IMG/VR virus record: IMGVR_UViG_3300029959_000009
Coordinates: 6,699-70,698 of that record
Source of the DNA: a virus
Lineage: Duplodnaviria; Caudoviricetes
DNA length: 64,000 nucleotides
Strand: one strand, 5' to 3'
Notes under the pieces: model-generated
What the model saw: only the letters and a program-made list of their open reading frames with translations
What the model was told of the DNA's origin: nothing
Database searches by the model: none
Part shown: one piece after another, positions 3,815-58,371 of the stretch
How the letters are laid out: each line of letters begins with the position of its first letter
Position numbering within the stretch: the stretch's first letter is position 1
Program-made: the position numbers and the translations under genes

Positions 3815-3888
3815 GCTGCAATAGCGTCGCAGAGCCAGGAGTCGCGATCCTGGCTGCAGCATCAATCGATATGGAGGATTGAATAAAT

Positions 3889-14167: not shown

Positions 14168-15367
14168 CTAAACCGCCTCCTCTTCGTCTTTAACTCCAAG
14201 CTCCTGCTTGATCTTCGCCAGCCTGCGCTCGATGTCGAAGCCGGTGTACTCCAGGCCCATCGACCTTTTCAGCTCGACGGCGATCTCTTCGGGCGTGAAC
14301 TCGACTAGATGGAGATCCCAGATCTTGCCGTCCACGGCGGCCCGGCTGCACCCATCGGGCGCGCCCCGTGACATAGAGACTGATGGGGGCCAAGATTCCT
14401 TTCCTTCGGGGAGGGGCTTTGATGGCGCCGCGGGCTGTGGCCGCGCCTTGGGTGCGGGGATATCCGGGGCGGGCGCTTCCTCTTTGGCGTGCGGCCGTCT
14501 GGCCAGTATGGAACGTACTTTCGTCCACGGGCACTCGATCCACTCATCGGCCCACAGGGCTTTGCTGATGTCCTTGACGGCCATTCCCCGGTCGGCCAGC
14601 GCGTACACGCGGCCCTTTAGCTCTTCATCGTCTATCTGCTTCGGCTTCTGCTCGCTGGACTCGGGGGTCTGGACTGTGCTTTCTGCCGTCTGCTCTGTGG
14701 CCTCTGCCCTCCGCTCTGCGACGCGGGATATGGTCGCCTGCACCTCGCCGTCGTTTGAGATCTCCCCTGACGCAGATATCACGAGATCCAACCGGCCATA
14801 ATCATGCGGCTTTGCCGATAGATCGAAACAGATGTTTCGCATTGGGTCTTCTGCTATCTGCTCTACAGGCTCCGCGGTCTGGACGGCGGGCTCTGGGGCC
14901 TGTAGAGCGGCTTCTGCCTTCTGCTCTATGGGCTCTGGATTCTGGCTTATGCCCTCTGGCTTGCAGACTTCAACATGTTCCTCTACAGGCGGTTCCTTTG
15001 GGGCAGCCTCTAATATCCAGGCGCGCCCTTCCGGGGAGGTTGCCGGGGTTCTCCGGGCTTCGTTCTTCTTCGCTGTGTTGTAGCGGCTCTTTACGCCGTC
15101 CGGGGTGATGCCATCGTACCCCTGCTCTTTGAGAGCATTGGTAATGGCCTTCCATCGGATGCCCTCATCACCCAGCTTCAGGACGATGGCGTTTATGCGG
15201 TCGTTCTCCTCCTGGTCGCGCTGTTTCTTCGTCTTTGCAGGCTCGGCCATGGTGACGAGCTTATCGATTGTCTTTTCGATCTCTGGGAGCTTGTTAGCCC
15301 TTACGAGATCGGCAGGGATTTTGTCGTCTGGAAATAATATACTGAAAATACGGGATTGCTTGTTCAT
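14168..15367 (-). CDS. Hypothetical protein with several HTH-like modules and E/Q/P-rich linkers
   Basis: 399 aa; WKAITNAL, VKDISKAL and PEEIAVEL helical modules separated by EQ(K/T)AE repeats. Confidence 0.6.
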   Translation of the reverse strand: MNKQSRIFSILFPDDKIPADLVRANKLPEIEKTIDKLVTMAEPAKTKKQRDQEENDRINAIVLKLGDEGIRWKAITNALKEQGYDGITPDGVKSRYNTAKKNEARRTPATSPEGRAWILEAAPKEPPVEEHVEVCKPEGISQNPEPIEQKAEAALQAPEPAVQTAEPVEQIAEDPMRNICFDLSAKPHDYGRLDLVISASGEISNDGEVQATISRVAERRAEATEQTAESTVQTPESSEQKPKQIDDEELKGRVYALADRGMAVKDISKALWADEWIECPWTKVRSILARRPHAKEEAPAPDIPAPKARPQPAAPSKPLPEGKESWPPSVSMSRGAPDGCSRAAVDGKIWDLHLVEFTPEEIAVELKRSMGLEYTGFDIERRLAKIKQELGVKDEEEAV

Positions 15368-21083: not shown

Positions 21084-21605
21084 TCATTTTAACCCCTCAA
21101 CCTCCCTGCATATCTCTGGGTACTTCTTCCGCACCGCCCCCTCCATCATCTCTCGGATGTCCTCGCTCATTTTATAGCGGGGCGTCGTGAGGTCCAGGTA
21201 GTTCAGCACGCTTCGCACCAGGGGCGAGTACACCGTCGCCTTCGGGTATCGTCTGGCCTCTGCAACGGCCTGCGCGAGCAAGGCGGAGTCTATAGGCCGC
21301 TCTCTGGACTCTGCCCTATGGTCTCTGGGGTCGGAGCTGGGCATCTGCTGTATGAACTCGTCTGCTGTCTGCTCTCCGCCTTCTGCGGTCGGCGGGGCGC
21401 CCTCTGCTTTCTGCTCTGCGGCCTCTGCATCGATGCGCTTGATGTTCCACCTCACGGTCGAGTGGGGATACTTGAGTTCTTTTGCTATTGCTCGCTCAGA
21501 CGGCCGAGGGGTCTGCGACATCAGCGAGCGGAGGTGCGCGAGGGCCTCCTCGTTCTCGGCCAGCTTGGGGCGGTCGATGGCGGCCTTCATAGGATTGCCC
21601 TCCAT
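21084..21605 (-). CDS. HTH DNA-binding protein
   Basis: PSERAIAKELKYPHSTVRWNIKR. Confidence 0.6.
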   Translation of the reverse strand: MEGNPMKAAIDRPKLAENEEALAHLRSLMSQTPRPSERAIAKELKYPHSTVRWNIKRIDAEAAEQKAEGAPPTAEGGEQTADEFIQQMPSSDPRDHRAESRERPIDSALLAQAVAEARRYPKATVYSPLVRSVLNYLDLTTPRYKMSEDIREMMEGAVRKKYPEICREVEGLK

Positions 21606-25779: not shown

Positions 25780-26198
25780 AATCCAGATCATGCAAGAACA
25801 AAGGATATCGCCTGCAGGTCGAAACGCGAGATAAGATCCTCGCCGCCCTGGGCGTATCCGAGGCCGACGTCCTGAGCCGGTCGATGGGCTCAGCTGGGGC
25901 GGATATATGCCTCTCCCAGGCGGCCAGAGATAAGCTCCCTATCGCGTTCGAGTGCAAATACACGGAACGGCTGGAGGTATGGGATGCTCTCAAGCAGGCC
26001 GAGGCCAACGCGAAAAAGGAGGGGCTCGCGCCCTGCGTAGTCTTCCGCCGCAATCGGTCGGAGACCTACGCGATCCTGCGCTTCGACGACCTGCTGCACC
26101 TTCTGGTATCTGCAAAGCAGAAGGCAGAGGGCGGAGAGCAGAAGGCGGAATCTGGAGAGCAGAGAGCAGAAAGGTTAAATAATAGTAAGGATAACTAG
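25776..26198 (+). CDS. Holliday junction resolvase-like PD-(D/E)XK nuclease (Hjc/D14-like)
   Basis: KGYRLQVETRDK...GADI...FECKY...WDALKQA. Confidence 0.75.
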   Translation: MKSRSCKNKGYRLQVETRDKILAALGVSEADVLSRSMGSAGADICLSQAARDKLPIAFECKYTERLEVWDALKQAEANAKKEGLAPCVVFRRNRSETYAILRFDDLLHLLVSAKQKAEGGEQKAESGEQRAERLNNSKDN

Positions 26199-27069: not shown

Positions 27070-27274
27070 ACACCTTTTTGGGGTGCGATATGGATTTCAA
27101 AGAGTTGCGGATGCGGCGCAAGATTATCTACGTGTCCGAGAAATTAACTCGCAGGAGCGGAGAGGACGGAGCGAGAAGTCCCCGGACTTCAGGCCGTGGG
27201 ATGAAAGCGGAGTCCTCCCTTTTTCTTACATGATCACCGATAACTATTTAAGGCAATAATGGGATACACTTATT

Positions 27275-27694
27275 TTGGTAAAACCTATGAAGTATAAGCT
27301 CGATAGATCTGCTCATTCCGTGTATTCTCTCCATTATCATTTGGTGGTAGTGGTGAAATACCGGAGGAAAGCACTCTATGATGAGGTGATTAGGGAGCGC
27401 CTGAAGCAGATCATATGGAGTTTGACGGATGATCTTGGAATAGAAATACTTGCACAAGAGCCTGCTGAAGATCATCTTCATGTGTTGTTCAAGGCCACGC
27501 CTAAAACCAATCTGGTCAACATTGTGAACGTCATCAAAGGCGTAACTGCTAGAAGGCTTAGACAGGAATTTCCACAGACCAAAGCGTTTCTTTGGGGAGA
27601 TTCTTTCTGGTCCGACTCCTATTTCATAGCCTCAACAGGGCAGGTTAGCATTGATATCCTGATGCAGTATGTAGAATCTCAGATGGAGAAGTAA
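27275..27694 (+). CDS. tnpA: IS200/IS605 Y1 HUH transposase
   Basis: YHLVVVVKYR, DHLHVL (HUH), IKGVTAR, WSDSYF. Confidence 0.95.
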   Translation: MVKPMKYKLDRSAHSVYSLHYHLVVVVKYRRKALYDEVIRERLKQIIWSLTDDLGIEILAQEPAEDHLHVLFKATPKTNLVNIVNVIKGVTARRLRQEFPQTKAFLWGDSFWSDSYFIASTGQVSIDILMQYVESQMEK

Positions 27695-28881
27695 TGACTA
27701 TCAGCTACAAGTATCCGATATTCCCAGATAAAGCGACTCAGCAAAAGTTAGCTGAAGCTCTGGATGCTTGTAGATGGCTTCATAACCGACTTCTTCAAGA
27801 GCTGAACGAAGCTAGGGAGAAAGGTATCAAACTCAAAACCTATGACACCCAGAACATGATACCCTCTCTGAAGCTTGAGAATCCCAAACTGAATCTGGTC
27901 TATTCCAAAGTTCTTCAGATGGTCAACTACACTCTCTGGTCTAACATCAAAGGTCTCTCGGCTTCTAAGAAGAATGGCCGAAAGGTAGGTCATGTCAGAT
28001 TCAAAGGTTATGGCTGGTATAAGACCATGAACTACAACCAGTCTGGATTCAAACTGGATCAAGATCACGGCAGATTGCATCTATCCAAGATAGGCGACAT
28101 CAGGATCAAAATGCATCGCAAGATCCAAGGATGCATCAAAGCAATCCTAATCAAGAGAGAAGGCAGGCAATGGTTTGCTATTGTTCAAGCCGATCAAGAT
28201 CCAGAGCCATTGCCAGAAACTGGTAATTCAATCGGGTTAGATGTCGGCCTGAAGTCCTTTGTTGTAGATACTGGTGGCAATTCTGTAGAGAATCCGAGAT
28301 TTGCTGAGAAATCTGCTGATAAGTTAGCTAAGGCTCAGAAACGATTGGCCAGAGCCGAACAGGGATCTAACAACCGCCGAAAGATCAAAGAGCAGATAGA
28401 GACGATCCATAAGAGGATCAACAACCAGAGAGATGATTTCCTCCATAAACTTTCAAGGCTCTATGTCAATAACTACGATAATATCTGCATAGAAGATCTA
28501 GATGTCAAAGGTCTGAAAGAAAAAGGCCACAACAAAGGAAAGCATCGTAGTATCCATGATGCGTCCTGGGCCAAATTTGCGTTCATGCTTTCGTACAAGG
28601 CTGAAAGTGCTGGTCGAAGGCTGATCAAGGTCGATCCAAGGAACACAACTCAGAGGTGTTCCAATTGTGGAAGTATTGTTCCAAAAGATGAATCTGTCAG
28701 AGTTCATGAGTGTCCTTACTGTGGGTTCTCATGTGACCGTGACTATAACGCTTCCATAAATATACTCATCGCAGGGATGGAACAGCCCGTAGCGCCCATA
28801 GAGTCAAAACCTCTACATCGCATATCTGTGATGCAAGTTTTGGCGATGAAGTGGGAAGCCCTACCCTTTAGGGTAGGGTAG
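27694..28881 (+). CDS. tnpB: RNA-guided endonuclease TnpB
   Basis: RuvC motifs IGLDVG, IEDL and DRDYNAS; CxxC/CPxCG zinc finger. Confidence 0.95.
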   Translation: MTISYKYPIFPDKATQQKLAEALDACRWLHNRLLQELNEAREKGIKLKTYDTQNMIPSLKLENPKLNLVYSKVLQMVNYTLWSNIKGLSASKKNGRKVGHVRFKGYGWYKTMNYNQSGFKLDQDHGRLHLSKIGDIRIKMHRKIQGCIKAILIKREGRQWFAIVQADQDPEPLPETGNSIGLDVGLKSFVVDTGGNSVENPRFAEKSADKLAKAQKRLARAEQGSNNRRKIKEQIETIHKRINNQRDDFLHKLSRLYVNNYDNICIEDLDVKGLKEKGHNKGKHRSIHDASWAKFAFMLSYKAESAGRRLIKVDPRNTTQRCSNCGSIVPKDESVRVHECPYCGFSCDRDYNASINILIAGMEQPVAPIESKPLHRISVMQVLAMKWEALPFRVG

Positions 28882-29166
28882 TTCACTTGTGGACGTGTTG
28901 CGTGGTCTGGGAGACGTCGAGACGATCTCCTTGCCGATGGTAAAACCTCCCGAAGAGGGCAGCATCGTCGTTAGGGTGTGGCCGGATTACACGCGCCACG
29001 CTTTTGCTGTCGAGATGGTTAATGAGAACTGGCCGGTAGTGCTCGATGGCTGTAGATGTCCTGAAGGGGATGCTGAAGTTGTAAGGCGGTTCTTCTATGT
29101 CGATGCAGAGAACCCCTCGGTGCTGAAGACAGTCGAAAGATAGCCAAAGCTAGGAGTGGTAGAGAA

Positions 29167-29422: not shown

Positions 29423-30874
29423 TTAAGTCGGCGGCGGGTTAATCAGCACGTCGCCGGGGTCAAGCCTACTATCGCTCTCGACCGTTATTTTATCCCCCAG
29501 CGCCGCTATCGTCGTCGCCCCATCGGTCGCCGATAGCGCTGTGATCTCGTCTATCCCGTAGAACCTGTCGCCCCATTCTCCATCTCCAAGATATTGAATG
29601 CGGGCCGCGTCGTACAGGTCCGAGAACTGCAGCTCCTCGCCTATCATGAAGTCGTCCAGGAAGGCCTCTATCGAAGCCTGTATGAGGTCGTCCAGGTCAC
29701 TCTCGGGCGTCGCCGTGGCAACGTAGGTCATCACCACATCGATAGTAACCTTCTCCGGGAGCAGGAACAACAGCGGCGGCGCGCCGTACCCTATCAGCAC
29801 ATCGTACTCGAACGCCCCTGCGTAGGTATCCACCGGCACAGAAGCAACATCAGTATCCCCTTCAGCCAGCGCAACCTCGACATACTGCCCCTCGACCGTC
29901 CCGGCTGGAACGGAAGCCGTGGCCTCGTGGGTCGCCCCTTCCGGCGTCACGTAGTCGAACGTGAACTCGTCGAGCGCCGTCACGCTCACCCTGGCCCTGA
30001 GCCAGATCTGGCCGCCTGCAGCATCCCCCAGGTCGCCGGTGTTGGCGTCTGCCTCCAGATGGGCCGCCAGCATCCCCCGGCCGCATACGCCTGCCGAGAT
30101 GCACTCCTCGATGGCATCCCCGACCAGGCCTATGTTGGTCTCGGTGGGCGTGGTATCGACGATGATCTCTGCGTCTCCCCGGCCCTTGTTGTAGACTTTT
30201 GCCTCCCTCACAATCTTGGAGCCGCTGGACTCGACCGCCTCCAGCCACTCTTTCATAGTCGGGACTGTCGCCCGGCCGTACTCTGTCGCTGTCGCTATGT
30301 ACCTCTGCCGCAGGTCGTCGTCGCTCTCCTCGTCTGCCCCGCCTGTGAACGTGAGCGGGTTTGTGACGTAATCCACGCCGGAGAGGCCGCCAGAGACGGC
30401 GACTATTGCGGCTGCCCGGACGTTCCCCCTGGCCCCTGCCTCGGAGGCTTCGACGTATGCGGATATCGAAGTCTGGCCGGCGAGCAGCGTAACCGCTGCG
30501 ATGGTGACGAAGTAGACTGGTCCCTCGCCGTCCGTGTCCTGGGCACTTACTTCTGTGCCTGCGGGAATCGGGATGTCGGCGCTGGCAGCCGTCGTGCGGA
30601 TAAAGTTGATCTGGCCTGTGGCCTTGGTTCCCGTGAGCCTCGTTAGGCCCCGGTCCTTCGCCAGGTCGTCGAGGTCTGCCCCTGTGGCGGTGAGGACGTT
30701 CTGGGCCTCGGCAGCGTTCTCGATCTTTACCTCTAGTCCCTGGACGACTTTAGCGAACGGGATTGTAGTCTTGCGGAGCATCGAATGCAGAGACCAATCG
30801 CAGAGGCTCGGATTCTCCGCTATTGTATCGGCTTCTATAGTAGCAAGAATTTGTTCAACTGTGCGAACGGCCAT
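29423..30874 (-). CDS. Baseplate J-like wedge protein
   Basis: ATGADLDDLA...RLTGTKATG, A.EAGARGN, FTGGADEESDDDLRQR. Confidence 0.9.
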   Translation of the reverse strand: MAVRTVEQILATIEADTIAENPSLCDWSLHSMLRKTTIPFAKVVQGLEVKIENAAEAQNVLTATGADLDDLAKDRGLTRLTGTKATGQINFIRTTAASADIPIPAGTEVSAQDTDGEGPVYFVTIAAVTLLAGQTSISAYVEASEAGARGNVRAAAIVAVSGGLSGVDYVTNPLTFTGGADEESDDDLRQRYIATATEYGRATVPTMKEWLEAVESSGSKIVREAKVYNKGRGDAEIIVDTTPTETNIGLVGDAIEECISAGVCGRGMLAAHLEADANTGDLGDAAGGQIWLRARVSVTALDEFTFDYVTPEGATHEATASVPAGTVEGQYVEVALAEGDTDVASVPVDTYAGAFEYDVLIGYGAPPLLFLLPEKVTIDVVMTYVATATPESDLDDLIQASIEAFLDDFMIGEELQFSDLYDAARIQYLGDGEWGDRFYGIDEITALSATDGATTIAALGDKITVESDSRLDPGDVLINPPPT

Positions 30875-30876
30875 AA

Positions 30877-31329
30877 CTAGCCCCTCCCGCCTGTTATGAA
30901 TTCAAGTGCCTTAAGCGTCTTCCTGGTCTGCCTCCACAGCTCGAGCAACCCTTCGGAGTCCGTGAAGAATGCGACCTCTTCAGAATTGAACATCGCAGAA
31001 ACAGCTATGCCGTGGGTGTTCGTCAGCTCGTCGAAGGCATTGACGCACCGCACGTTGGTTATCGTGTACTCCGGGAAGTTGTATTCCATGTTGGCTTTGA
31101 GTTCGAGCTCCAGCTTATTCAGGTTGGTATTGATCGCCTTCCCGAAATGGTATTTGTGCAGGATGCAGCCGCAAAGGGGGTCGATATCCTCGCCGAGGGG
31201 CGTGGACGCCCAGATGACGATATGCTGCTTTAAAAGGTTCCACTCGCCGCAAATCACGGCGAGGTCGCCGGTTGGGGTGAGAACTTTATCCATATTACCG
31301 TGACAACGGAAGGAACCGTGATTATCCAT
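30877..31329 (-). CDS. Baseplate wedge/sheath-initiator protein (gp25/W-like)
   Basis: GDLA...LKQHI...TPLGE...P.CG motif and position just upstream of J. Confidence 0.7.
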   Translation of the reverse strand: MDNHGSFRCHGNMDKVLTPTGDLAVICGEWNLLKQHIVIWASTPLGEDIDPLCGCILHKYHFGKAINTNLNKLELELKANMEYNFPEYTITNVRCVNAFDELTNTHGIAVSAMFNSEEVAFFTDSEGLLELWRQTRKTLKALEFITGGRG

Positions 31330-31375
31330 CCTAAGGTTGCATGCGAGGTCACAGACTGGCGTTTTCTATCCCTCC

Positions 31376-33196
31376 TCAGTGGCTTGATACAGTCATGTTC
31401 TCAACATCACATGATATCGTTGAGCCGCCCGATCCTGTGTTGAGCGACGAGAGGCCGTAAAGATATCTGTAAGCGGCCGGGATATTAGCATCTGATATCG
31501 ATAGCGTGTCTAGAAGCTCCGTCATGTTCTGGTCGGTGTAGATTTCCAGGGAGGCGACGTTCTCTCCATCGGGCTTTCGCAGGATGCAATAATACTGAGT
31601 GCCTATGGAGATATCCGCCGTGTCGTAGGTTACGACCGACGAGCCATTCCACAGGAGGAGCCCCGCCACCGAGCCGCCGAGGTTTGCGGCTTCGCATACG
31701 AGCTTGTAGCCGGTTGCCCCAAAGATATCCGCAGCGTTCGCGTTGGTCAGGCTGCAGCATCCACAGGCCCCGCCGCTGATGGCGTTCACCTTGAAGCCGA
31801 ACAGTATCCGCACGTCCTGGAAGTAGTCGGCCCCGAAGTCTTTGCAGACGTAGGCAGACTCGGCGCACGTCAAATCGGAACATGCTGCCTTAGAGGCCGT
31901 GACCGTAACGCGACTGTTCGGGTCGGCCTCCGAGTATGTGGTGAAGTCCTGGGCGCCTAAGCAGCTGCAAGGCCCGTGCGAGCACGCGCCGTCTATGCTG
32001 AGGCCGCCTGTGATACGCACGTTGCCGTCCAGGGTGATGACCCCCGCAGAAACGATATGCACCTCGGCCGGGCCGTGGATGTAGACCTTCTGCCCGGCCT
32101 TGGCCACCACCTCGATATCGCCGTCTTCCTTGATATCGATATAGTTGCCCTTGTCCTCGTTCGATAGCCAGATCCGCCCCTTCTTCGGGTCGTTGACGCC
32201 GAAGAGTTCGATATGGGCCGCCGCACTCGGCGCGCTCCGCAGCGAGAGATTCGCCCCTACGCCTGTATCCTCTGCCCTGAAGTGGATATGAGAGCGGCCA
32301 ACGTGGGCTTTCTGTGCCTCCAGCCAGATTCGGCCCTCTGTGCCGTTGCCACATTTGGAATCCACGCAGAAGAGGGAGCCGCAGGACCAATGGAGCTTGA
32401 ATCGCCGGGCGATGTCATCCGACCCCTCGTAGTCTGAAGAGAGGATTTTGAGCCAGGTGTTCATAGCTGGCACAGAGCCCGAAAGAGGCTCGCTCTCGCA
32501 CTCAATGTAATCCGGCCCGTCACCTGAGCCGTCGCCGTTCAGCTCACAGAGCTTGCAGTCGGGAACGGCCTTGCCCTTCTTGCACTCGAAGACCGCCATG
32601 CAGTCGCGGGTTTTGTCGAAGTAGGAGAAGCAGACCGGGCGGAGCTTGCCCGCCAATGTTACCTTGCTGTGGTCGAAGGTGGTCTCCCACGGTTTCCCGT
32701 GCTCATCGTCTATAGATCTTCGGGGGATGCGGAGCCACTGGTCGAGCCTGAACCGCCAATCGAAATAGTTATCGTAGTCGCCGTTATCCCAATCCTCGTG
32801 CGCTCCATCTGGCGGGATGCCCTGGTGAGCAGAGCTGCGGCACACGGGCTTCTGGCCGTTCGGGGGCATAGTGCCGACGATGACGGGCCGGTCGTTCATG
32901 TAGAAGCCGATCAGGACTGAATCACCCACTCGCGGAGTCCAGGGAGTGCCCGAGCGGTTGCCGATGTGCCTCTGTAGGACGGGGACCCTCAGGCGGTGGG
33001 CGGGGCCGTTCGGCGGGACGCTGGAGGGGTTAGACGGCACTGCATCCTGTATTATGACGTCGCAGTGCTGCCAGTTCCAATCCTCCGGGTCGTTGTGGGT
33101 CCAGACCCGGACGACCTGCCCGACCTCGAAGTTCTTGCGGAGCTGGTCCATACGCAGGGACTCGTCCCGGCCCACGTTCTTCATTTCTGTGACCAT
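31376..33196 (-). CDS. Baseplate central spike (gpV/gp5-like) with C-terminal extension
   Basis: OB-fold WTPRVGDSVLIGF...PVIVG, beta-helix-like repeats, extra C-terminal domain. Confidence 0.75.
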   Translation of the reverse strand: MVTEMKNVGRDESLRMDQLRKNFEVGQVVRVWTHNDPEDWNWQHCDVIIQDAVPSNPSSVPPNGPAHRLRVPVLQRHIGNRSGTPWTPRVGDSVLIGFYMNDRPVIVGTMPPNGQKPVCRSSAHQGIPPDGAHEDWDNGDYDNYFDWRFRLDQWLRIPRRSIDDEHGKPWETTFDHSKVTLAGKLRPVCFSYFDKTRDCMAVFECKKGKAVPDCKLCELNGDGSGDGPDYIECESEPLSGSVPAMNTWLKILSSDYEGSDDIARRFKLHWSCGSLFCVDSKCGNGTEGRIWLEAQKAHVGRSHIHFRAEDTGVGANLSLRSAPSAAAHIELFGVNDPKKGRIWLSNEDKGNYIDIKEDGDIEVVAKAGQKVYIHGPAEVHIVSAGVITLDGNVRITGGLSIDGACSHGPCSCLGAQDFTTYSEADPNSRVTVTASKAACSDLTCAESAYVCKDFGADYFQDVRILFGFKVNAISGGACGCCSLTNANAADIFGATGYKLVCEAANLGGSVAGLLLWNGSSVVTYDTADISIGTQYYCILRKPDGENVASLEIYTDQNMTELLDTLSISDANIPAAYRYLYGLSSLNTGSGGSTISCDVENMTVSSH

Positions 33197-33216
33197 ATAA
33201 ATCCCTTTGTATAATA

Positions 33217-33612
33217 TTATCTCCTACTTCCCCACTCCGGTATCACGAGCAGCCTGTACCACCCGGAAGGTATCACCTCATCCGACTTTGCCGCCCTGAT
33301 GGCAGCCAGCGGGTTGCTCATCGATACGTACAGCTCCGGGTTGATTAGCAGGATCAGCCAGCCATCCGTCAACCCCCTCTTTAGATGAGCTATGTCGTAG
33401 CTGGCGTTCTTGGCGTAGATATCGACCGCCAGGCGCTTCGAGCAGACCACATAAAGGCTCCTTGCCCCAAAATCCCCCATGAGGATCGCCGGGTCGTCTG
33501 CTCCATAAGAGAATGTGGTCTGTCGGCCGTGCGTCGTGGTGCTCTCAATTAGCGGTAACATCTCAGAGCCCCAGGTCGCGGTCTGCGTAGATCTGCGCCG
33601 AGTTCGCCTCAT
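33217..33612 (-). CDS. Hypothetical baseplate-region protein
   Basis: Position between the hub and spike genes. Confidence 0.5.
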   Translation of the reverse strand: MRRTRRRSTQTATWGSEMLPLIESTTTHGRQTTFSYGADDPAILMGDFGARSLYVVCSKRLAVDIYAKNASYDIAHLKRGLTDGWLILLINPELYVSMSNPLAAIRAAKSDEVIPSGWYRLLVIPEWGSRR

Positions 33613-34804
33613 TAAGAACGAATGGCGCTACCTCTATGTAGGACACCCACCCGGCTTTTGAAGAGTAATTCGTCTTACAGCGAGTGACAAACCCCGACAT
33701 CTCCGGGCCGAGAGCCCATACGTATCTCTGGACCTCTCCGGGACTGTTCAGCATCAGCCGAGGGTACTTGTAAGAGACCTTGGACTTGAGCTTTGGAGAT
33801 CGGCCAACGACGGCCGGCATGGAGCGGTTCCAGAAGGTTACATACCTTGCCAGCAGCCGCAAGGCCCTATTGCGGCACTCCAATTCAGTGCAGCAGTCGG
33901 GATAATAGAACGTCGGGGCATCTATCCGCCCGTAGTTTTCGAGCATACTGGCGGCCACCTCCGCGCCCCCCTCGCCGTTCTCGTTGTTCAGGATCATGGC
34001 CAGGTCGGCGTCGGTCGTCTCGTAGAACATCGCCCTGTCGGGAAGGTTGGAGGCGTGAGGATGCGTCGGGTCGGCCGGGCTGGCCCCGCGCACTGTGACC
34101 CTGTTGCACAGCCCTACGGCCGACTCGCTCTGGGCAGGGTACTTCATCCGGCCGGTATAGGGTGGATTAATACCGCGCACGCCGGGAGGGACGTATTGGA
34201 GCTGGTTGTTCTCGTCCATGAAAACCTCCTGGCCGTCGTTCTCTGCCAGGTAGTCCAGCACGCCTTTGCCGCTCTGGTCCCTCAAAAACCCCCACTCGCG
34301 TTTTTCCATACCCGCAGGTACTTTTATCTCGCCCTCTTCTAGCCCGTACTGCTCGCATATCCGGTCTATAATGGGCCTGGTGGGCTTCCCCTTGTGGTCG
34401 AAGATATCTTGCTTTAGGTAGGCGTTCGCCTTCAGGTCGGACGTCCCGGCCGAGATCTTGCAGGTGGTGTAGCCGTAGTCTGCCTTCTGGGCGAGGCCCG
34501 TAAAAACCAATGCACTGTGAACCGATGGGCCTGGGTACTCTATGGAGATGAGTATTACCATGATGAGGGAGAGGGGCGACACCTCCGGGTCCGTCTGGAA
34601 GTTCTTTTTGTTCTCGAATGGGGCTGATGTCTCCCCGACCACATTAACTGCCCCGTCGAACCTCCCTCCGACGTTGGATAAGGTGATGTCGGCCTGCTGT
34701 ACATACGAGGTATTGGACGACGGGATGAGTACATCGATATCAGCGCCCATCACGAACGGGCTAACGTCGATATTGTCGATCAAAACGTAGTGAGCGATTG
34801 GCAT
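33563..34804 (-). CDS. Baseplate hub protein (gpD/Mu gp44-like)
   Basis: ADITLSNVGG, DYLAENDGQEVFMDENNQLQY, NRVTVRG, plus position. Confidence 0.7.
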   Translation of the reverse strand: MPIAHYVLIDNIDVSPFVMGADIDVLIPSSNTSYVQQADITLSNVGGRFDGAVNVVGETSAPFENKKNFQTDPEVSPLSLIMVILISIEYPGPSVHSALVFTGLAQKADYGYTTCKISAGTSDLKANAYLKQDIFDHKGKPTRPIIDRICEQYGLEEGEIKVPAGMEKREWGFLRDQSGKGVLDYLAENDGQEVFMDENNQLQYVPPGVRGINPPYTGRMKYPAQSESAVGLCNRVTVRGASPADPTHPHASNLPDRAMFYETTDADLAMILNNENGEGGAEVAASMLENYGRIDAPTFYYPDCCTELECRNRALRLLARYVTFWNRSMPAVVGRSPKLKSKVSYKYPRLMLNSPGEVQRYVWALGPEMSGFVTRCKTNYSSKAGWVSYIEVAPFVLNEANSAQIYADRDLGL

Positions 34805-34850
34805 TTGACCTCAGTTAATTATTTATATCATAACTGCGATTCATATATGT

Positions 34851-34985
34851 ATGGCATTAAAGCGTTACACATGTTTGCGGTGTGGTAAAGAGTGGATACC
34901 GCGAAAGGATGGAAAGCCCCGAACCTGCCCCAACCCGAAATGCAGGTCGGTCTATTGGGATGTGCCCCGGAGAGAGAAAGAATGA
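34851..34985 (+). CDS. Zn-ribbon microprotein (44 aa)
   Basis: CLRCGKEWIPRK...CPNPKCRSVYW; ATGA overlap with the endonuclease gene. Confidence 0.6.
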   Translation: MALKRYTCLRCGKEWIPRKDGKPRTCPNPKCRSVYWDVPRREKE

Positions 34986-35818
34986 GGAAAGGCAGCCACC
35001 TATCAGAGGAACATAAAGCGAAATTATCTAAAGCTAATATGGGAAAGCACCCATCACCCGAAACCCGCGCAAAGATGTCGAAGTCGCGCAGTGGGGAGAG
35101 GCATTACTTGTATGGAAAGCATCTATCGCCTGAAGTAAAAGCCAAGATATCTAAGACAGAACGAGGGAAGATCATTCCTGAAGATGTGCGCCTCAAGATG
35201 TCCGAGTCCCACAAAGGCGCTAGAAACTGTAATTTTGGGAGAGAGTTTAGCGAGGAGCATCGCGCCAAAATATCACAAGCAAGAAGAGGCCGACGCGCCC
35301 CTCCAGAGACCCGCGCAAAGATGGCTGCCTCGCAAAGCGGTCGTCGGCACTCCCCGGAGACGCGTGCCAAAATGTCTGCTTGGCAAATAGGGAGGAAATT
35401 GCCCCCCGAAACGGTCGCTAAGGTCGTAGCTACAAACGTTCGCCTCGGAACCCGCGCGGGTGAGAGGAATGGCAGGTGGAGAGGGGGCGTATCATTCGGC
35501 CCATATTGCCCAAAGTTCAACTTTGAATTTAAAGAACGTGTGCGGGAGTTCTTTGGTCGCAAATGCTTGATTTGTGATAAAACGGAGGCAGACAATGGCA
35601 GAAAGCTCGACGTGCATCACGTTGCTTATGACAAAATGATTTGTTGCAATGATAAAAAACCTTTGTTTGCTGCCCTTTGCACATCACACAATTCAATCGC
35701 CAACAATGGCCGAGATGGTTGGGAGCATATGTTTACATACATCATCGAGGAGGTATATAAAGGCAAATCGTTCTACTCGAAAGAGGAGATGTCTGCATTA
35801 AAATGTAACAAAAATTAA
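34982..35818 (+). CDS. NUMOD3-repeat HNH homing endonuclease
   Basis: About eight H-S-(E/P)E-x-R/K-A-K-M/I-S repeats followed by CLICD...LDVHH...ALC; opposite strand to the virion operon. Confidence 0.85.
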   Translation: MRKGSHLSEEHKAKLSKANMGKHPSPETRAKMSKSRSGERHYLYGKHLSPEVKAKISKTERGKIIPEDVRLKMSESHKGARNCNFGREFSEEHRAKISQARRGRRAPPETRAKMAASQSGRRHSPETRAKMSAWQIGRKLPPETVAKVVATNVRLGTRAGERNGRWRGGVSFGPYCPKFNFEFKERVREFFGRKCLICDKTEADNGRKLDVHHVAYDKMICCNDKKPLFAALCTSHNSIANNGRDGWEHMFTYIIEEVYKGKSFYSKEEMSALKCNKN

Positions 35819-35826
35819 TATATATC

Positions 35827-36258
35827 CTATACTATATTATTGTCGTTGCACTCAACAAGAGTAACGTCCCACTCGATTGCAAACGTCTGCATACCCGTCC
35901 TCGGCACTCTGCGGAGCTTGCTTTCGATATACATCAGGAGCGGAGAGGATCTCAGGAGGTGGCACTGGACCTCATGCGGCGCGTAGTTGTCGAGGGCGTC
36001 CATGGTCTCTTTGTCGTCTTTGGTGAACGTCGTAACAACGAAATGCAAGACCTTCAGGGCGACGGGTTCCGTGGCTTGGGTGATGGTCATATAGCCAGGA
36101 ACGGGCTGCCTTACGACCTCGAAGCGTTCCGTGATTTCAAGGACATTGGGCATCGGCAAGCAATCCTCCTCCCAAGTGCCCTCCTCGGCGCTACTCGACC
36201 TATTGAACTCAATGCCGTCAATAGCAAATGGAATAATATCATCTTGATATTCGACCAT
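35827..36258 (-). CDS. Tail-associated protein following the tape measure (possible tube initiator); contains the array's gapped match
   Basis: GGTG RBS before ATG 36258; myovirus gene order TMP-X-hub. Confidence 0.6.
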   Translation of the reverse strand: MVEYQDDIIPFAIDGIEFNRSSSAEEGTWEEDCLPMPNVLEITERFEVVRQPVPGYMTITQATEPVALKVLHFVVTTFTKDDKETMDALDNYAPHEVQCHLLRSSPLLMYIESKLRRVPRTGMQTFAIEWDVTLVECNDNNIV

Positions 36259-36297
36259 AACACCGTCCAAGAAAAAAATAAACTTGCCTCTTGTAAT

Positions 36298-36600
36298 TCA
36301 GATCGCGCTTAAGATATCATCCAACTTTTGACTCAGCTTTTGAGGATCTTCTATAAGCTCGTACCCCAATCTATAGATCCGCCAACCCTCATTCTTTAAG
36401 ATCTTGTCTCGAAACCGATCACGCCTCTTATTGCTACTGCCATCATGGCATGGGCCATCGGCTTCGATAACAATCCCGCCTTCAATCACAATATCCAAGA
36501 CGAACCCCGAAGGAGTTGGGTGTTGAGCTAAAAACTCAACATCTCGCGCCTTCAAGGCATCCATCACCACTTTCTCAAGCGATGTTGGTTTGTAATCCAT
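36298..36600 (-). CDS. DUF559/Vsr-like endonuclease
   Basis: TSLEK..., LDIV...VIEADG..H...RDRFRD..L...GWRIYR. Confidence 0.85.
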   Translation of the reverse strand: MDYKPTSLEKVVMDALKARDVEFLAQHPTPSGFVLDIVIEGGIVIEADGPCHDGSSNKRRDRFRDKILKNEGWRIYRLGYELIEDPQKLSQKLDDILSAI

Positions 36601-36700
36601 ACACTACCACGCAACACTTCACATAGCACGGCATCACAGTGCAACTCATCACAAGACAAGGCCGAACAGGGCCATACAGGGCGCGACAGCGCATCGCCTC
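36601..36700 (-). ncRNA. Pentamer array, 20 x NN-(T/G)GY; putative gapped guide RNA
   Basis: gaggc gatgc gctgt cgcgc cctgt atggc cctgt tcggc cttgt cttgt gatga gttgc actgt gatgc cgtgc tatgt gaagt gttgc gtggt agtgt. G at position 4 in 20/20 units, Y at position 5 in 19/20, TGY 13, GGY 4. Confidence 0.85.
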
Positions 36701-37394
36701 GTTTAAACCGCTCCTACTAAGGAGCAGGCTTTACCTCATCGACCTTTGTAACGGCAAATCTCCCATAGGGGCCACCGCGTTCAGGCCGGAAATCTCCAAG
36801 TCCTATCCTAGTGCCTGCATAGCTTAAGATTTCTTCGACTATCGAACCCCCATGATTGACATCCAAAAATACTGGATCTATCACTTTAATTTGGAATTCG
36901 CATGCCCACGCATCGAACCTCGGGCGGGCCTTCAGAACTCGTGCCCTATTGATTACAACAGGCCGAAGGTCCACAACCCAATTGCCTATCAGCAATGGCT
37001 CCTCGGGCACCGTCTCTAGGCCACTCATGACGAGGTCTTTAAAGGTCTTCTTGCCTTTACCGCCCACTCTGAAATTTGTAGCAGCTCGGCGCATCGATGC
37101 TAGGAGGTTCATACCAGGCATCACGACTTCGCCCTCGGCGTTCAAATATAGGCCCATCTGAGCTTCTTCTTCCGGGGTCCACTTAGGGGCGTTCTTGCCA
37201 CGCTTTTGGCTTTCTATCATCTCCCTTGTACTATGCATCAACAGGGGCTTTATACCTTCGATTTTAACTCGCAGGAGCGGAGAGGACGGAGCGAGAAGTC
37301 CCCGGACTTCAGGCCGTGGGATGAAAGCGGAGTCCTCCCTTTTTCTTACATGATCACCGATAACTATTTAAGGCAATAATGGGATACACTTATT

Positions 37395-37814
37395 TTGGTA
37401 AAACCTATGAAGTATAAGCTCGATAGATCTGCTCATTCCGTGTATTCTCTCCATTATCATTTGGTGGTAGTGGTGAAATACCGGAGGAAAGCACTCTATG
37501 ATGAGGTGATTAGGGAGCGCCTGAAGCAGATCATATGGAGTTTGACGGATGATCTTGGAATAGAAATACTTGCACAAGAGCCTGCTGAAGATCATCTTCA
37601 TGTGTTGTTCAAGGCCACGCCTAAAACCAATCTGGTCAACATTGTGAACGTCATCAAAGGCGTAACTGCTAGAAGGCTTAGACAGGAATTTCCACAGACC
37701 AAAGCGTTTCTTTGGGGAGATTCTTTCTGGTCCGACTCCTATTTCATAGCCTCAACAGGGCAGGTTAGCATTGATATCCTGATGCAGTATGTAGAATCTC
37801 AGATGGAGAAGTAA
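37395..37814 (+). CDS. tnpA: IS200/IS605 Y1 transposase
   Basis: Translation identical to 27275-27694. Confidence 0.95.
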   Translation: MVKPMKYKLDRSAHSVYSLHYHLVVVVKYRRKALYDEVIRERLKQIIWSLTDDLGIEILAQEPAEDHLHVLFKATPKTNLVNIVNVIKGVTARRLRQEFPQTKAFLWGDSFWSDSYFIASTGQVSIDILMQYVESQMEK

Positions 37815-39001
37815 TGACTATCAGCTACAAGTATCCGATATTCCCAGATAAAGCGACTCAGCAAAAGTTAGCTGAAGCTCTGGATGCTTGTAGATGGCTT
37901 CATAACCGACTTCTTCAAGAGCTGAACGAAGCTAGGGAGAAAGGTATCAAACTCAAAACCTATGACACCCAGAACATGATACCCTCTCTGAAGCTTGAGA
38001 ATCCCAAACTGAATCTGGTCTATTCCAAAGTTCTTCAGATGGTCAACTACACTCTCTGGTCTAACATCAAAGGTCTCTCGGCTTCTAAGAAGAATGGCCG
38101 AAAGGTAGGTCATGTCAGATTCAAAGGTTATGGCTGGTATAAGACCATGAACTACAACCAGTCTGGATTCAAACTGGATCAAGATCACGGCAGATTGCAT
38201 CTATCCAAGATAGGCGACATCAGGATCAAAATGCATCGCAAGATCCAAGGATGCATCAAAGCAATCCTAATCAAGAGAGAAGGCAGGCAATGGTTTGCTA
38301 TTGTTCAAGCCGATCAAGATCCAGAGCCATTGCCAGAAACTGGTAATTCAATCGGGTTAGATGTCGGCCTGAAGTCCTTTGTTGTAGATACTGGTGGCAA
38401 TTCTGTAGAGAATCCGAGATTTGCTGAGAAATCTGCTGATAAGTTAGCTAAGGCTCAGAAACGATTGGCCAGAGCCGAACAGGGATCTAACAACCGCCGA
38501 AAGATCAAAGAGCAGATAGAGACGATCCATAAGAGGATCAACAACCAGAGAGATGATTTCCTCCATAAACTTTCAAGGCTCTATGTCAATAACTACGATA
38601 ATATCTGCATAGAAGATCTAGATGTCAAAGGTCTGAAAGAAAAAGGCCACAACAAAGGAAAGCATCGTAGTATCCATGATGCGTCCTGGGCCAAATTTGC
38701 GTTCATGCTTTCGTACAAGGCTGAAAGTGCTGGTCGAAGGCTGATCAAGGTCGATCCAAGGAACACAACTCAGAGGTGTTCCAATTGTGGAAGTATTGTT
38801 CCAAAAGATGAATCTGTCAGAGTTCATGAGTGTCCTTACTGTGGGTTCTCATGTGACCGTGACTATAACGCTTCCATAAATATACTCATCGCAGGGATGG
38901 AACAGCCCGTAGCGCCCATAGAGTCAAAACCTCTACATCGCATATCTGTGATGCAAGTTTTGGCGATGAAGTGGGAAGCCCTACCCTTTAGGGTAGGGTA
39001 G
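37814..39001 (+). CDS. tnpB: RNA-guided endonuclease TnpB
   Basis: Translation identical to 27694-28881. Confidence 0.95.
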   Translation: MTISYKYPIFPDKATQQKLAEALDACRWLHNRLLQELNEAREKGIKLKTYDTQNMIPSLKLENPKLNLVYSKVLQMVNYTLWSNIKGLSASKKNGRKVGHVRFKGYGWYKTMNYNQSGFKLDQDHGRLHLSKIGDIRIKMHRKIQGCIKAILIKREGRQWFAIVQADQDPEPLPETGNSIGLDVGLKSFVVDTGGNSVENPRFAEKSADKLAKAQKRLARAEQGSNNRRKIKEQIETIHKRINNQRDDFLHKLSRLYVNNYDNICIEDLDVKGLKEKGHNKGKHRSIHDASWAKFAFMLSYKAESAGRRLIKVDPRNTTQRCSNCGSIVPKDESVRVHECPYCGFSCDRDYNASINILIAGMEQPVAPIESKPLHRISVMQVLAMKWEALPFRVG

Positions 39002-39060
39002 TTCACCCTCGAAGGTTTTCATCAACGGTTCGGGCTTAAACTCCATCAGTTCTCACCGAT

Positions 39061-39135: not shown

Positions 39136-39151
39136 TGCCGTAATGCTTATT

Positions 39152-39310
39152 ATGGCGCGAACGACCTTAACTTTATCCGATCCGATCATGCGCACTCTAA
39201 GAACCCACGCAGCCCGGACGAAGAACAGCTCCAAAGCCCAAAGCGAAGTTGTTGAGGAGGCTCTAAAGGAGTATTTCGAGAGATACCACATTCAGATAGA
39301 AGCTTCGTAA
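39152..39310 (+). CDS. Ribbon-helix-helix (CopG-like) regulator (52 aa)
   Basis: MARTTLTLSDPIMRTLR...QSEVVEEALKEYF. Confidence 0.75.
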   Translation: MARTTLTLSDPIMRTLRTHAARTKNSSKAQSEVVEEALKEYFERYHIQIEAS

Positions 39311-39328: not shown

Positions 39329-41764
39329 TCAAGCGATATAGGCTCTGTTGGCCCTACCCACGGCGGCCTCGACCTTGCTCTTGAACTCAAAGCTACTCAG
39401 CTCCTTCTCAAGACCCTCCCGGATCTGTCTGGCTATGCTGTAGCCGTCTGCCCCTCCGGTCGGTGCTACGTGAATATCGCCGATCTGGACAGTAATATTG
39501 CCTCCGCCAGACCCGCCCGCTGCTATGTCTTTGAGGCTGTTTATCAGAACAGAGGACCTCGCCACTTCAGCCGGAACGATGGGCTCGCCCTCGTCAACCC
39601 AGGCGAGGCCGGAGCGCTGGACCTCTCCACCGACTGCATTTTTATTCCTGAAAATGTAGTCGTAGGCCATCCGGCCGTACAGCTGCAGGCCGCCCTCCAC
39701 ATCAGCCGACCCCTTGATTTGGTCGGATGGCTTGGTGCGGATATCCAGGCCGCCCGGCCCCTTGATATCGTTGGTGTATGCAGGATTGTAGAATGGGTTT
39801 CCAGAGGCCGCGCCCAACGGCGAAACGTCTTTATCTCCGGCGTTGGGGTTTGCCAGCTTGTTTCGCAGGGCATCAACCATGTCGTTATACTTCTTTTCGT
39901 TAGCTCCTTCTGGCCTCATGGGCTTGCCCGTTTGGGCTTCCTCGATGGCTGCTAAAATGGTGGCGTTGCCGAAGTCGTACTTATCTCGGCCTTTGCTATC
40001 GTCGAGGCTCTTGACCCAATCGACCAGCTTCCATTTTGCGTCCTCTGTGAGCGGCTTCTGCCCGCCGCCAGTGAACTTATCGACGATCTGCTTGAGGTAC
40101 TCGTATATTTTCACCAGCGGGGCGAGCTTATCGACGATTGCCCCATGGATATCTCTGAGCCAGTTAGTGAACCCGTCCCAGAGGTCTTTCATCTTCTGCA
40201 GCACGTACAGAATCATATCCTGTACGCGCTTGGAGGGTAAAAGAGCCTCGGCGAAGCCTGCCACAAGGCCCATGGGAGAGAGCTTGATAGCCAGCCCGAT
40301 GCCGCCTTTCAGAGCGCCCCCGATGTCGCCGGACTTCCACAGCTTGTAGAGGGCGTCTACCTGGTCGAACAGGCCCGCCACGTAACCGGATACTGTTTCG
40401 ATGGCCTTGCCAACGCCGCTGAAGTAATCCCCCTCTCCGAGAATCCCGAATGAGGCGAGCAGGCTGTTAAGCCCGTTGATCAGGTCTTTGCCGATCTCGC
40501 TTTTGGCGAAGTGGTCCCACGCCTTGCTGAAGACCTGGAACCTGGACTCCAGCGAGGAGAGGACGACTGCCAGGGCGACAATAGCGACGATTGCGAGCCC
40601 GATGGGGTTCGCCAGCAAAGATGCTGTGAGGGCCGTGATGCCGCCCGTGACCAGGCCGAGGATCGTCGGGAGGACTGCAAAGGCTGTGCCCAGGCCCAGG
40701 ACCACGGCAATCAGGGCCGGAACCTCAGGAACCAGTGCAAGGAGCTTTACAACCGCCGTCGTAAATCCCATTATGATGGTCGCCGCTGGCCTGATGGCGT
40801 TGCCTATCCCCTCGTTCAGCTTCTCGAACGACCTGGTAAGATCCCTCATGCCGACGCGGTAGCTGTCGGTGTCGGGCTCAACCTGCTCCCCGATCCTCTC
40901 CAGTGCTTTTGAGGCCAGACGGCGGCGGGCCTCGGCCTCGACTACCTCATCGGATTGATAGGCAAAACTCTTCTCGCGCTGGACCTTCAGCTTCTCGGTC
41001 TGCAGCGTCCCGGCCTTGAAGAACTCGGGCATCTTGCTCTTCACGATGCGCCCGATATCCGAGTTCTCGTCCAGGGGGTTCGAGAGTGTCTGCAGGAGGC
41101 CTTTCTCGTCGGTTATCCCGAAGCCTGCCAGCGATTGCCCGAACGTCGAGGACATGATGCGCTCGGCGTTCTTGATATTCTTCTGGATCACGGACTGATC
41201 GCGGTAGCCCGTCATTGCCATATATCCGGCGAGGTTGCCCCTGGTGAGCGAAGACGTGCCGAAGCCCTGATCGCCCTTCGAGATGAAGTTCAGGACACCC
41301 CCTGCCTGGCTTCCGAGCTGGTCCCTGATCATGGCGATGTTCAGCCGTTGGGCCTCTGCGACCTGAAGGGCAGACTTGGCGTAAGCGACCATCCCGGCCG
41401 CAGCTCCCGCTACGATGAGCTTGCCGGCGTCGAGCTTCTGGAAGAACGAGCCGACTGTATCCCCTGCCTTCTTCGACTGATCGGCCATAGCCCGGAGCTT
41501 ATCGTTCATCCCTCCGAGGGCCTTATCCTGCTCCTTGATGCCTTTGGTAGCCTTGGACGTGTCGATCTCACCAGCGGCTTTCGTGGCCTTCTCGACGCTC
41601 TTTATGGCCTTTTCAGCCTCTTTGGTGGCGACGGCTACGGTCATCGTGTAGCTCTTCGCCGTGAGTGCCGTGGCCTTCGCCAAGAGTCTGTCGAGGCCCT
41701 TTTCGCCGCCCTCGTCTCTAAGCAGGGTTCGGATGATGAAGTCTCTGATATTCTCTGTCGCCAC
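39329..41764 (-). CDS. Tail tape measure protein
   Basis: 811 aa, Ala/Gly/Lys-rich helical, NPIGLAIVAI hydrophobic segment, downstream of the chaperone. Confidence 0.9.
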   Translation of the reverse strand: MATENIRDFIIRTLLRDEGGEKGLDRLLAKATALTAKSYTMTVAVATKEAEKAIKSVEKATKAAGEIDTSKATKGIKEQDKALGGMNDKLRAMADQSKKAGDTVGSFFQKLDAGKLIVAGAAAGMVAYAKSALQVAEAQRLNIAMIRDQLGSQAGGVLNFISKGDQGFGTSSLTRGNLAGYMAMTGYRDQSVIQKNIKNAERIMSSTFGQSLAGFGITDEKGLLQTLSNPLDENSDIGRIVKSKMPEFFKAGTLQTEKLKVQREKSFAYQSDEVVEAEARRRLASKALERIGEQVEPDTDSYRVGMRDLTRSFEKLNEGIGNAIRPAATIIMGFTTAVVKLLALVPEVPALIAVVLGLGTAFAVLPTILGLVTGGITALTASLLANPIGLAIVAIVALAVVLSSLESRFQVFSKAWDHFAKSEIGKDLINGLNSLLASFGILGEGDYFSGVGKAIETVSGYVAGLFDQVDALYKLWKSGDIGGALKGGIGLAIKLSPMGLVAGFAEALLPSKRVQDMILYVLQKMKDLWDGFTNWLRDIHGAIVDKLAPLVKIYEYLKQIVDKFTGGGQKPLTEDAKWKLVDWVKSLDDSKGRDKYDFGNATILAAIEEAQTGKPMRPEGANEKKYNDMVDALRNKLANPNAGDKDVSPLGAASGNPFYNPAYTNDIKGPGGLDIRTKPSDQIKGSADVEGGLQLYGRMAYDYIFRNKNAVGGEVQRSGLAWVDEGEPIVPAEVARSSVLINSLKDIAAGGSGGGNITVQIGDIHVAPTGGADGYSIARQIREGLEKELSSFEFKSKVEAAVGRANRAYIA

Positions 41765-57597: not shown

Positions 57598-58371
57598 TCA
57601 CAAGCTCAATATCGCGTTTTTCACATATTCTGCCATAATATAATATCCACTCGATGATAAATGTACCCCGTCTAAATAATATCTAGCATCATATGCGACG
57701 CTGTCAGGATCGCCGATGTTGATCCCGATGACCGGATCAAGTGCGACATCCGCCAGCGCATCTGCGAAATCGGTATATCCTGCACGCAAGGCAATGTTTA
57801 ACGCGTCTCGGTGGGGCTCATAGCCTACCACTTCGTACTCTGCCGGGAGAGACAGGACCACAACCTCGAAGCCCGTTGCCTTTCGAGCCAGACACCAGGT
57901 TTCGATGTAGCCATACACATCGTCTTCATCAATCGAATGCTCTGGGCCATGCCTGAGATCGTTTACAGTTAGAAGAACCGCTATGTTCTTCTGATAATCG
58001 GAATCATACAGGGCATCGACATTTGCCACCGCGCGATCTAGTATCGCGGGTGGGTTATATGTACTCATGTATGAGCCAGAGATTCCAACATTTGTTACTT
58101 TTTGCAAGCCGGCGTCTCGGAGCATATACGCGAGCCAAGCGGGATACGACATCTGGACATTGTAGCCGAACGTCACCGAGTCACCTTCGCAAACAATATT
58201 TTTGAACTGGCTCTTGTAATTAGCTTGCAAATACCCGCTGAGCGCAAATGCGCTATTTCCATAGACGGCATTTGCAATTCTGCGCCCCATGGCTGATATT
58301 CCTGGATCGGATGACCCGATACAATTCTCGAAATCTTGCCCGGTTGCGATCCATCTAGGCGCGCCCCTCAT
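57598..58371 (-). CDS. SGNH/GDSL hydrolase
   Basis: EGDSVTFG (block I), NVGISG, VND, DGVHLSSSGY (DxxH). Confidence 0.85.
   Translation of the reverse strand: MRGAPRWIATGQDFENCIGSSDPGISAMGRRIANAVYGNSAFALSGYLQANYKSQFKNIVCEGDSVTFGYNVQMSYPAWLAYMLRDAGLQKVTNVGISGSYMSTYNPPAILDRAVANVDALYDSDYQKNIAVLLTVNDLRHGPEHSIDEDDVYGYIETWCLARKATGFEVVVLSLPAEYEVVGYEPHRDALNIALRAGYTDFADALADVALDPVIGINIGDPDSVAYDARYYLDGVHLSSSGYYIMAEYVKNAILSL

Follow-up and report, generated by a model that had tools for sequence, protein, structure and literature searches.

A tandem pentamer array in the viral DNA analysed here is quite probably a VIPR guide RNA with which a Methanothrix virus targets rivals' alleles of the adjacent tail gene, its own copy of that gene being altered. 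The array lies in a 64,000-nt stretch (the window) of a 70,698-nt contig. It is found next to a gene homologous to vipr, and its variable letters match the neighbouring gene specifically when one base is skipped after each pair. Foreign alleles of this gene fit the array better than the virus's own allele, and the cassette carrying the array is present in some relatives and absent from others.

VIPR ("Viral Interference Programmable Repeat"), described in 2026, is a CRISPR-related RNA-guided DNA-binding system of viruses that consists of a small RAMP protein, Vipr, and vrRNAs built of GGY/NN pentamers (bioRxiv 10.64898/2026.04.26.720920, 10.64898/2026.04.26.720927). According to these VIPR preprints, the NN dinucleotides pair with double-stranded DNA, skipping every third base, and either strand is targeted. 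Natural targets, defined by an NN match of at least 80%, are mostly coding, with the wobble base skipped, and belong to competing phages and satellites; the published survey contained no self matches of 80% or above. Seven types and accessory genes vap1-6 are distinguished, and YNNNG repeat variants are mentioned. Virus-borne VIPRs silence and do not cut, the nuclease partners being located mainly in host defence islands. The wobble-skipping NN-x code that an initial annotation of this DNA had read from the letters is thus real and corresponds to the published VIPR 1-nt skip rule, so that the locus is a further example and not a new principle.

The vipr locus and its cassette

The features of the locus are listed below in window coordinates.

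34892..35818, plus strand: HNH gene with four NUMOD3 motifs, homing-endonuclease-like, flanking the target gene at its other junction; listed for context, outside the VIPR system
35827..36258, minus strand: target gene, encoding a 143-aa tail-module protein; directly after the tape measure gene in relatives
36109..36168, minus strand: near-self protospacer-like site within the adjacent tail gene (codons 31-50), matching at 31/40 NN letters (77.5%)
36298..36600, minus strand: DUF559/MTES_1575 restriction-endonuclease-like gene, candidate vap; D36, E46, D48 and H52 invariant
36601..36700, minus strand: vrRNA-type array of 20 pentamers NN-(T/G)GY, recognized from its sequence and from similar arrays beside Vipr homologs
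36705..36731, minus strand: hairpin with a 6-bp GCUCCU/AGGAGC core and a 4-nt loop, across the vipr stop codon, just 5' of the array (dG -15 kcal/mol, z -2.3)
36717..37267, minus strand: 3' part of vipr, codon 14 to stop (ORF 36717-37241), a RAMP protein homologous to SUSP1 Vipr by profile match
37268..39006, plus strand: IS200/IS605 element with TnpA (37395-37814) and TnpB (37814-39001), identified by sequence, inserted after TTAA in vipr
39007..39046, minus strand: 5' part of vipr, ATG and 13 codons, MEFKPEPLMKTFE, severed by the IS and recognized by comparison with homolog N-termini
39143..39310, plus strand: ribbon-helix-helix (RHH) gene, divergent from vipr, at the left end of the cassette, identified by sequence comparison
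39329..41764, minus strand: tape measure gene, followed within about 12-40 nt by the target gene in cassette-less relatives

The vipr gene encodes a lone small RAMP protein. A profile built from the window ORF and 38 homologs matches the "SUSP1 Vipr protein" (PDB 36pp_D) with E=3e-22, the match spanning profile positions 2-178 and chain positions 2-190; phrog_4652 is matched as well. Counterparts of the GGY-contacting residues are conserved, namely the histidine in PLLMH, the arginine in RPRF and D-F-R in GLGDFRP. When the Vipr fragment or the target protein served as a single-sequence query, IMG/VR gave no matches; homologs of both were recovered by alignment-based searches.

The array extends from 16 nt past the stop codon of vipr to the start codon (ATG) of the DUF559 gene (ORF 36298-36600). 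Position 4 is G in all 20 units and position 5 is C or T in 19, while T predominates at position 3 (14 units, the others having G in 4, C in 1 and A in 1), indicating that the first G of the triplet is relaxed. The array therefore shows the tandem-pentamer organization of VIPR, a GGY-like triplet with a hypervariable NN, and its 20 units exceed the 9-16 given for published type II. Pentamer arrays adjoin Vipr homologs in about 64-66 of the 69 IMG/VR loci with family members, and because of this synteny we rejected a coding repeat or an IS-related repeat as the nature of the array. CTG/CAG-rich repeats with a 21-nt period (7 codons) are present elsewhere in the window, inside ORFs on both strands (14642-14958, 21361-21428 and 26108-26171). 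These are probably coding heptad-like repeats that are not related to the pentamers.

The hairpin just 5' of the array has counterparts 5' of every array in two other cassettes, L005 and L023, and is a possible handle or processing signal. The structured 3' tail or pseudoknot of published vrRNAs is absent after the array, which runs into the next ATG, and no Rfam family matched the cassette. Since tails vary among the published types, the missing tail bears on the type of VIPR and not on the kind of system. A TTTAAA sequence follows the hairpin at 36703-36708 (minus strand), 3-8 nt before the array. It might serve as an archaeal TATA box, though a start about 25 nt downstream would fall within the array. 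No equivalent was seen ahead of array 1 of L005.

The vipr reading frame begins with MEFKPEPLMKTFE from the ATG at 39046, is interrupted by the 1,739-nt IS and resumes with VKIEGIKPLLMH...; apart from the IS it is open. A second copy of the IS at 27148-28886 is 100% identical over 1,739 nt, and the insertion in vipr is therefore recent. One IS end is partly repeated near 12184-12262 (92.5% over 80 nt). A contig from another sample, L096, is identical to window positions 29827-37404 and likewise starts inside the IS. Because vipr is split, the VIPR system is probably not working in the present genome and, as judged from the sequence, the guide is probably idle. IS200/IS605 elements are capable of precise excision. 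Such an event could reactivate the guide, and so could Vipr provided in trans, the situation described for solo vrRNAs.

The state of vipr raises the possibility that the system is dead here and that the array and its match are functionless fossils. The IS at codon 14, found in the same state in the second sample, and the single array of the window, compared with four in the sister cassette L005, speak for such a relic. We regard it as possible, though on balance unlikely: the identity of the IS copies places the insertion in the recent past, the array is regular in 19 of its 20 units, the vipr frame is otherwise open, precise excision is within the capacity of this IS family, and solo vrRNAs that use a rival's Vipr are documented.

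The DUF559/MTES_1575 gene is the accessory gene of the cassette. It is located beside vipr in the window, in L005/L006 and on the Logan contig that encodes the closest Vipr homolog, P0024, and the order vipr-array-DUF559 is also found in the 7 nearest IMG/VR loci (L023-L027, L029 and L030). Only in the window and in L005/L006 does the complete set RHH-vipr-array-DUF559 separate the tape measure gene from the target gene; about 15 other relatives are cassette-less. The cassette is thus polymorphic for presence and absence at one precise site, as is typical of homing elements.

Related genes are observed at other junctions. Just downstream of the target gene, L010 (902-1054) and L019 (578-730) have close RHH homologs (74-81% identity) at the contig end, and L005 has one (1627-1782) ahead of its tape measure gene, which suggests further cassettes at these junctions. 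Homologs of the HNH gene occupy the same or nearby junctions in L021 (1337-1651), L001 (13265-13567), L008 (2077-2316) and L099 (6833-7813), and the tail module has the appearance of a hotspot for such free-standing genes of the homing-endonuclease type. Elsewhere in the window, a 451-aa ORF (58368-59723, minus strand) matches the second domain of Mtd (PF21916, E=5.6e-15), a fold of diversity-generating-retroelement targets.

The probable guide and the alleles of its target gene

The NN letters of the array, identical to those listed in the initial annotation, match codon positions 1 and 2 of 36168-36109 (EDCLPMPNVLEITERFEVVR) at exactly 31 of 40 nt and 14 of 20 units, as was also stated there. 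The site is on the same strand as the array, in frame with the 143-aa ORF, and 433 nt away. We scanned both strands with the NN letters spaced by 0, 1, 2 or 3 free bases. With a skip of 1, 36109-36168 scores 31 and the runner-up 23, in the 64-kb window as well as in the whole 70,698-nt contig. Scans with skips of 0 and 2 reach at most 23, and a skip of 3 recovers only the array itself. Foreign alleles score up to 35/40 at the 1-nt skip, the spacing used by VIPR. Shuffled arrays, proposed earlier as a control, fall short of the real one (maximum 27 in 400 unit-order and 400 nucleotide shuffles), and so do reversed arrays (23-25). Binomial tails of 4.9e-12 per site and 6.3e-7 across the window agree well with the first rough estimates of about 4e-12 and 6e-7.

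The target protein has 22 homolog clusters, one of them from a Methanothrix MAG. Its AlphaFold model is weak (pLDDT 61) and Foldseek returned sub-threshold matches only, to tail-tube, Dit and baseplate-hub proteins, so that the label "tail gene" rests mainly on position.

When read as codon positions 1 and 2, the guide spells [DE][DE]ARP[IM]PSLL[DE]VT[DE]RY[DE]VV[SR], and a cognate target would encode roughly ...EDARPMPSLLEVTERYEVVR. The family consensus at the target site is E-D-D-A-R-P-M-P-x-P-x-E-x-T-E-R-Y-E-V-V-R. At units 3, 4, 12 and 16 the guide has the consensus residues A, R, V and Y, and the virus's own protein has C, L, I and F. To compare alleles, homologs from the metagenome homolog search were scored directly against the guide, yielding 17 distinct alleles with self included. 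Thirteen of these, all foreign, score 32-35/40 and the best, L013/L014, L021 and L092, reach 87.5%; self and one foreign allele (L017) score 31/40, and 2 foreign alleles score below 31/40. Relative to the published definition of a natural target (at least 80% outside the genome, self below 80%), the 13 foreign alleles are at 80-87.5% and self is at 77.5%. These comparisons support the proposal that the guide corresponds to a related virus's allele, both by the 13 of 17 alleles that surpass self and by the consensus residues at the four units.

The near-perfect homolog matches that had been expected were not obtained, 87.5% being the best found. No perfect target, or one of at least 90%, was detected for the window guide in any collection searched (IMG/VR, GTDB and the recovered homologs). 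The S-L-L of the guide at units 8-10 fits no sampled allele, and an exact gapped-pattern scan of IMG/VR with these units left free returned only L021. The GTDB species genomes contained no relative of the target gene and no match to the core guide pattern.

The guide has the sense of the coding strand, as had been noted; pairing would therefore be with the template DNA strand, in line with VIPR. The related suggestion that a code in codon phase is blind to synonymous escape is mostly true. It does not extend to six-fold degenerate codons: the alleles switch two in-site Arg codons between CGN and AGR, and Leu between CTN and TTR, changes that are synonymous yet alter the NN letters.

Another substitution is seen in two independent cassettes. 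At unit 3 of the window (site 36160-36162), and at 5439-5441 and 5445-5447 of L023, Ala (GC) of the guide and the consensus is replaced by Cys (TG) in the allele of the carrier. This two-base change strips both paired bases at little cost to the protein. The cassette-less L097 and L098 share these Cys residues, a pattern that would be compatible with repeated escape.

By analogy with the published systems, the array would be expressed and form an RNP that acts by silencing or cleavage, with an effect on fitness. In the mechanism that we favor, each conserved xGY triplet would be bound by one Vipr protomer and 20 NN dinucleotides would be presented. These would pair with double-stranded DNA with the third base skipped, placing the contacts at codon positions 1 and 2. 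The cognate target would be the 143-aa tail gene as found in related, mostly cassette-less Methanothrix viruses, and binding, possibly followed by DUF559 cutting, would block the competitor's tail and baseplate genes. The virus's own copy, altered at bases that determine the amino acid (A>C, R>L, V>I, Y>F and a variable tripeptide), falls just below the published threshold. The guide and the putatively resistant allele lie side by side by virtue of a mobile cassette of roughly 1.3 kb (RHH, vipr, array and DUF559) at the tape-measure/tail-gene junction. With vipr recently split by the IS200/IS605 element, the guide would be idle unless the IS excises or a co-infecting relative supplies Vipr.

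Several observations weigh against this explanation. A target of at least 90% is absent from the collections searched and units 8-10 (S-L-L) are unmatched; vipr is broken at codon 14, with the same state in a second sample; and the RNA has a 5' hairpin instead of the published 3' tail, with mostly T, not G, at the first position of the triplet.

Probable guides beside their targets in three cassettes

The sister cassette L005 can be compared directly with the cassette-less L011. Their flanks are 93% and 97.6% identical, and 1,624 nt of L005 (4431-6054) stand in place of a 12-nt spacer in L011. The differences in the right flank are nearly all in its first 35 nt, which are the target of the fourth guide of L005 (a4); the 99%-identical homology block resumes right after this site. 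Guide a4 matches L011 at 24/24 from the insertion junction on, L008, L093 and L094 at 23/24, and its own flank at 18/24. When extended to 18 units, across one irregular 4-nt unit, the match is 33/36 for L008, L011, L093 and L094, and 27/36 for self. At L005 5979-6010, a4 runs on past the 4-nt unit TTGG without losing the register of the target (F-D-I-V-T); the unit is either an assembly error or a 4-nt step that Vipr filaments can accommodate. Targets of the other three guides (a1-a3) were not found among the loci examined.

The third cassette, in L023, is more distant and occupies the next junction along the tail module. Its array 2 matches the cassette-less L099 at 34/36 (94%), compared to 27/36 (75%), in frame, for the 409-aa gene that flanks the cassette. 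There the family consensus reads IFSGEIQKAEADELFLKI and the self sequence VCSGEIQKCECDELFLKI, with the same Ala>Cys (GC>TG) double change as at unit 3 of the window. Exact-pattern scans of IMG/VR with the full guides of L023 array 2 and L024 array 3 gave no matches.

Near-matches at the array's own locus are more frequent than expected: they occur with p<=0.01 in 7 of 104 unique arrays, compared to 1 expected, and all 7 are on the same strand as the array, 77-1,300 nt from it. In-strand near-matches of 68-79% were also observed in cassette-flanking genes of L024 (2348-2395, array 3694-3773), L086 (3474-3515, array 3760-3829) and L083 (3483-3518 and 5251-5310). The L024 near-match falls in the gene upstream, at its 3' end, and two of the mismatches there result from synonymous changes of codon family, for Leu and Arg.

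In L005, the window and L023, the cassette-less allele thus carries the predicted recognition site near the insertion point, and the carrier would be immune by its sequence, a configuration of the homing type. This permits a refinement of the best explanation, in which Vipr and DUF559 would cut the "empty site" in a co-infecting relative and repair would copy both the cassette and the resistant flank. The presence or absence of the cassette at the same junction agrees with it, as do the perfect match of a4 to L011 from the junction and the return of near-identity just past that target. The window allele is about 82% identical to the cassette-less L095 over the cassette-proximal 240 nt and about 97% distally, the D..E.D..H motif of the DUF559 nuclease is invariant, and free-standing HNH homing-endonuclease genes are found at the neighbouring junction. 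However, published virus-borne VIPRs silence rather than cut, the window target is 90-150 nt into the gene and off the junction, the near-self site of L024 is on the opposite side of its cassette, and ordinary recombination mosaicism could yield the same breakpoints. We therefore consider drive by homing rather unlikely. The sequences suggest, equally tentatively, that cassettes of the Vipr-DUF559 clade may be selfish elements, either RNA-guided homing elements or tightly linked "poison-antidote" elements composed of guide, nuclease and recoded flank. If so, a co-infecting relative would be silenced, or cut and turned into a carrier. Homing would also explain why guide and target are adjacent, and phage homing endonucleases would thereby gain a first RNA-guided counterpart based on a RAMP protein.

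The guide might alternatively time or dampen the virus's own tail operon through the 31/40 match, since the site is in the same genome and on the same strand, 433 nt off, at the head of the baseplate genes. The VIPR preprints, including the structural one, give no data on mismatch tolerance, and that of a 20-unit guide could be broad enough for such a role. A regulator is expected to fit its own operator best, however, and here 13 of 17 alleles fit better than self; in the other two cassettes foreign sites match at 92-100% and self at 75%, and the published survey is without self matches of at least 80%. Since self ranks near the bottom of the matches in each of the three cassettes, self-regulation is very improbable. 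Chance resemblance of a short repeat to coding sequence, which gains something from the pattern having been picked after the data were seen, is refuted by the contig scan (next best 23) and the shuffles (maximum 27), by the failure of every skip other than 1 nt, by the codon phase of the match and by the recurrence of the pattern in other cassettes, and its probability is negligible.

Relationship to VIPR and other known systems

The locus extends VIPR to tailed viruses that belong to the important methanogen Methanothrix, and it combines a VIPR carried by a virus with a partner resembling a nuclease. In each of three independent cassettes, the guide fits the rivals' version of the adjoining gene and the carrier's copy is recoded there. 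The VIPR preprints do not describe such a linkage of weapon, target and resistance allele, nor an archaeal-virus setting, a DUF559 partner or a replicated guide-beside-target arrangement that is precise to the junction. The cassettes provide a testable model for the spread of VIPR and for the avoidance of self-targeting, and they display natural escape routes in the form of Ala>Cys double changes and six-fold Arg/Leu codon switches.

The locus resembles VIPR in its lone RAMP protein homologous to Vipr, its fixed-triplet pentamers with hypervariable NN and its in-phase NN-x targets. As in VIPR, the system is virus-borne, the targets are in competing viruses, self is below 80% and an accessory gene lies beside vipr. 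It differs from the published systems by its occurrence in an archaeal (Methanothrix) tailed virus, by a triplet that is mostly TGY and by 20 units instead of 9-16. Other differences are the small 5' hairpin in place of the 3' pseudoknot tail, a target that is the cassette-flanking gene, and the DUF559 nuclease-like and RHH accessory genes on a virus.

In SUSP1-family phages, solo or orphan vrRNAs use a rival's Vipr, and their self-match is consistently below the rival match (bioRxiv 10.64898/2026.10.15.759431). The window guide is similar in its lower self-match and in that it could use Vipr in trans, a likeness that matters here because vipr is disrupted by the IS. That preprint does not mention homing, insertion junctions or archaea. 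The targets of solo vrRNAs are vipr genes, other vrRNAs, satellites and host REP decoys, as opposed to the structural tail gene beside the cassette in the present case.

Phages harbor free-standing homing endonuclease genes, for example of the HNH/NUMOD3 or GIY-YIG type, between structural genes. The cassettes are like these genes in being mobile and located in a module junction, in the recognition of the cassette-less allele nearby, in the immunity of the carrier flank and in the presence of a nuclease. Unlike in these genes, recognition would be RNA-guided, by Vipr and vrRNA, and not performed by the nuclease itself.

IS200/IS605 transposons are retained through guidance of TnpB/IscB by omega RNA. 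Both arrangements involve a mobile element with an RNA guide for a sequence that is present where the element is absent. The IS copy in vipr is an unrelated element of the TnpB type and not part of the VIPR guide. A TnpB guide is transcribed straight from the flank, whereas the vrRNA is a gapped form with 5 nt per codon and no simple flank transcript.
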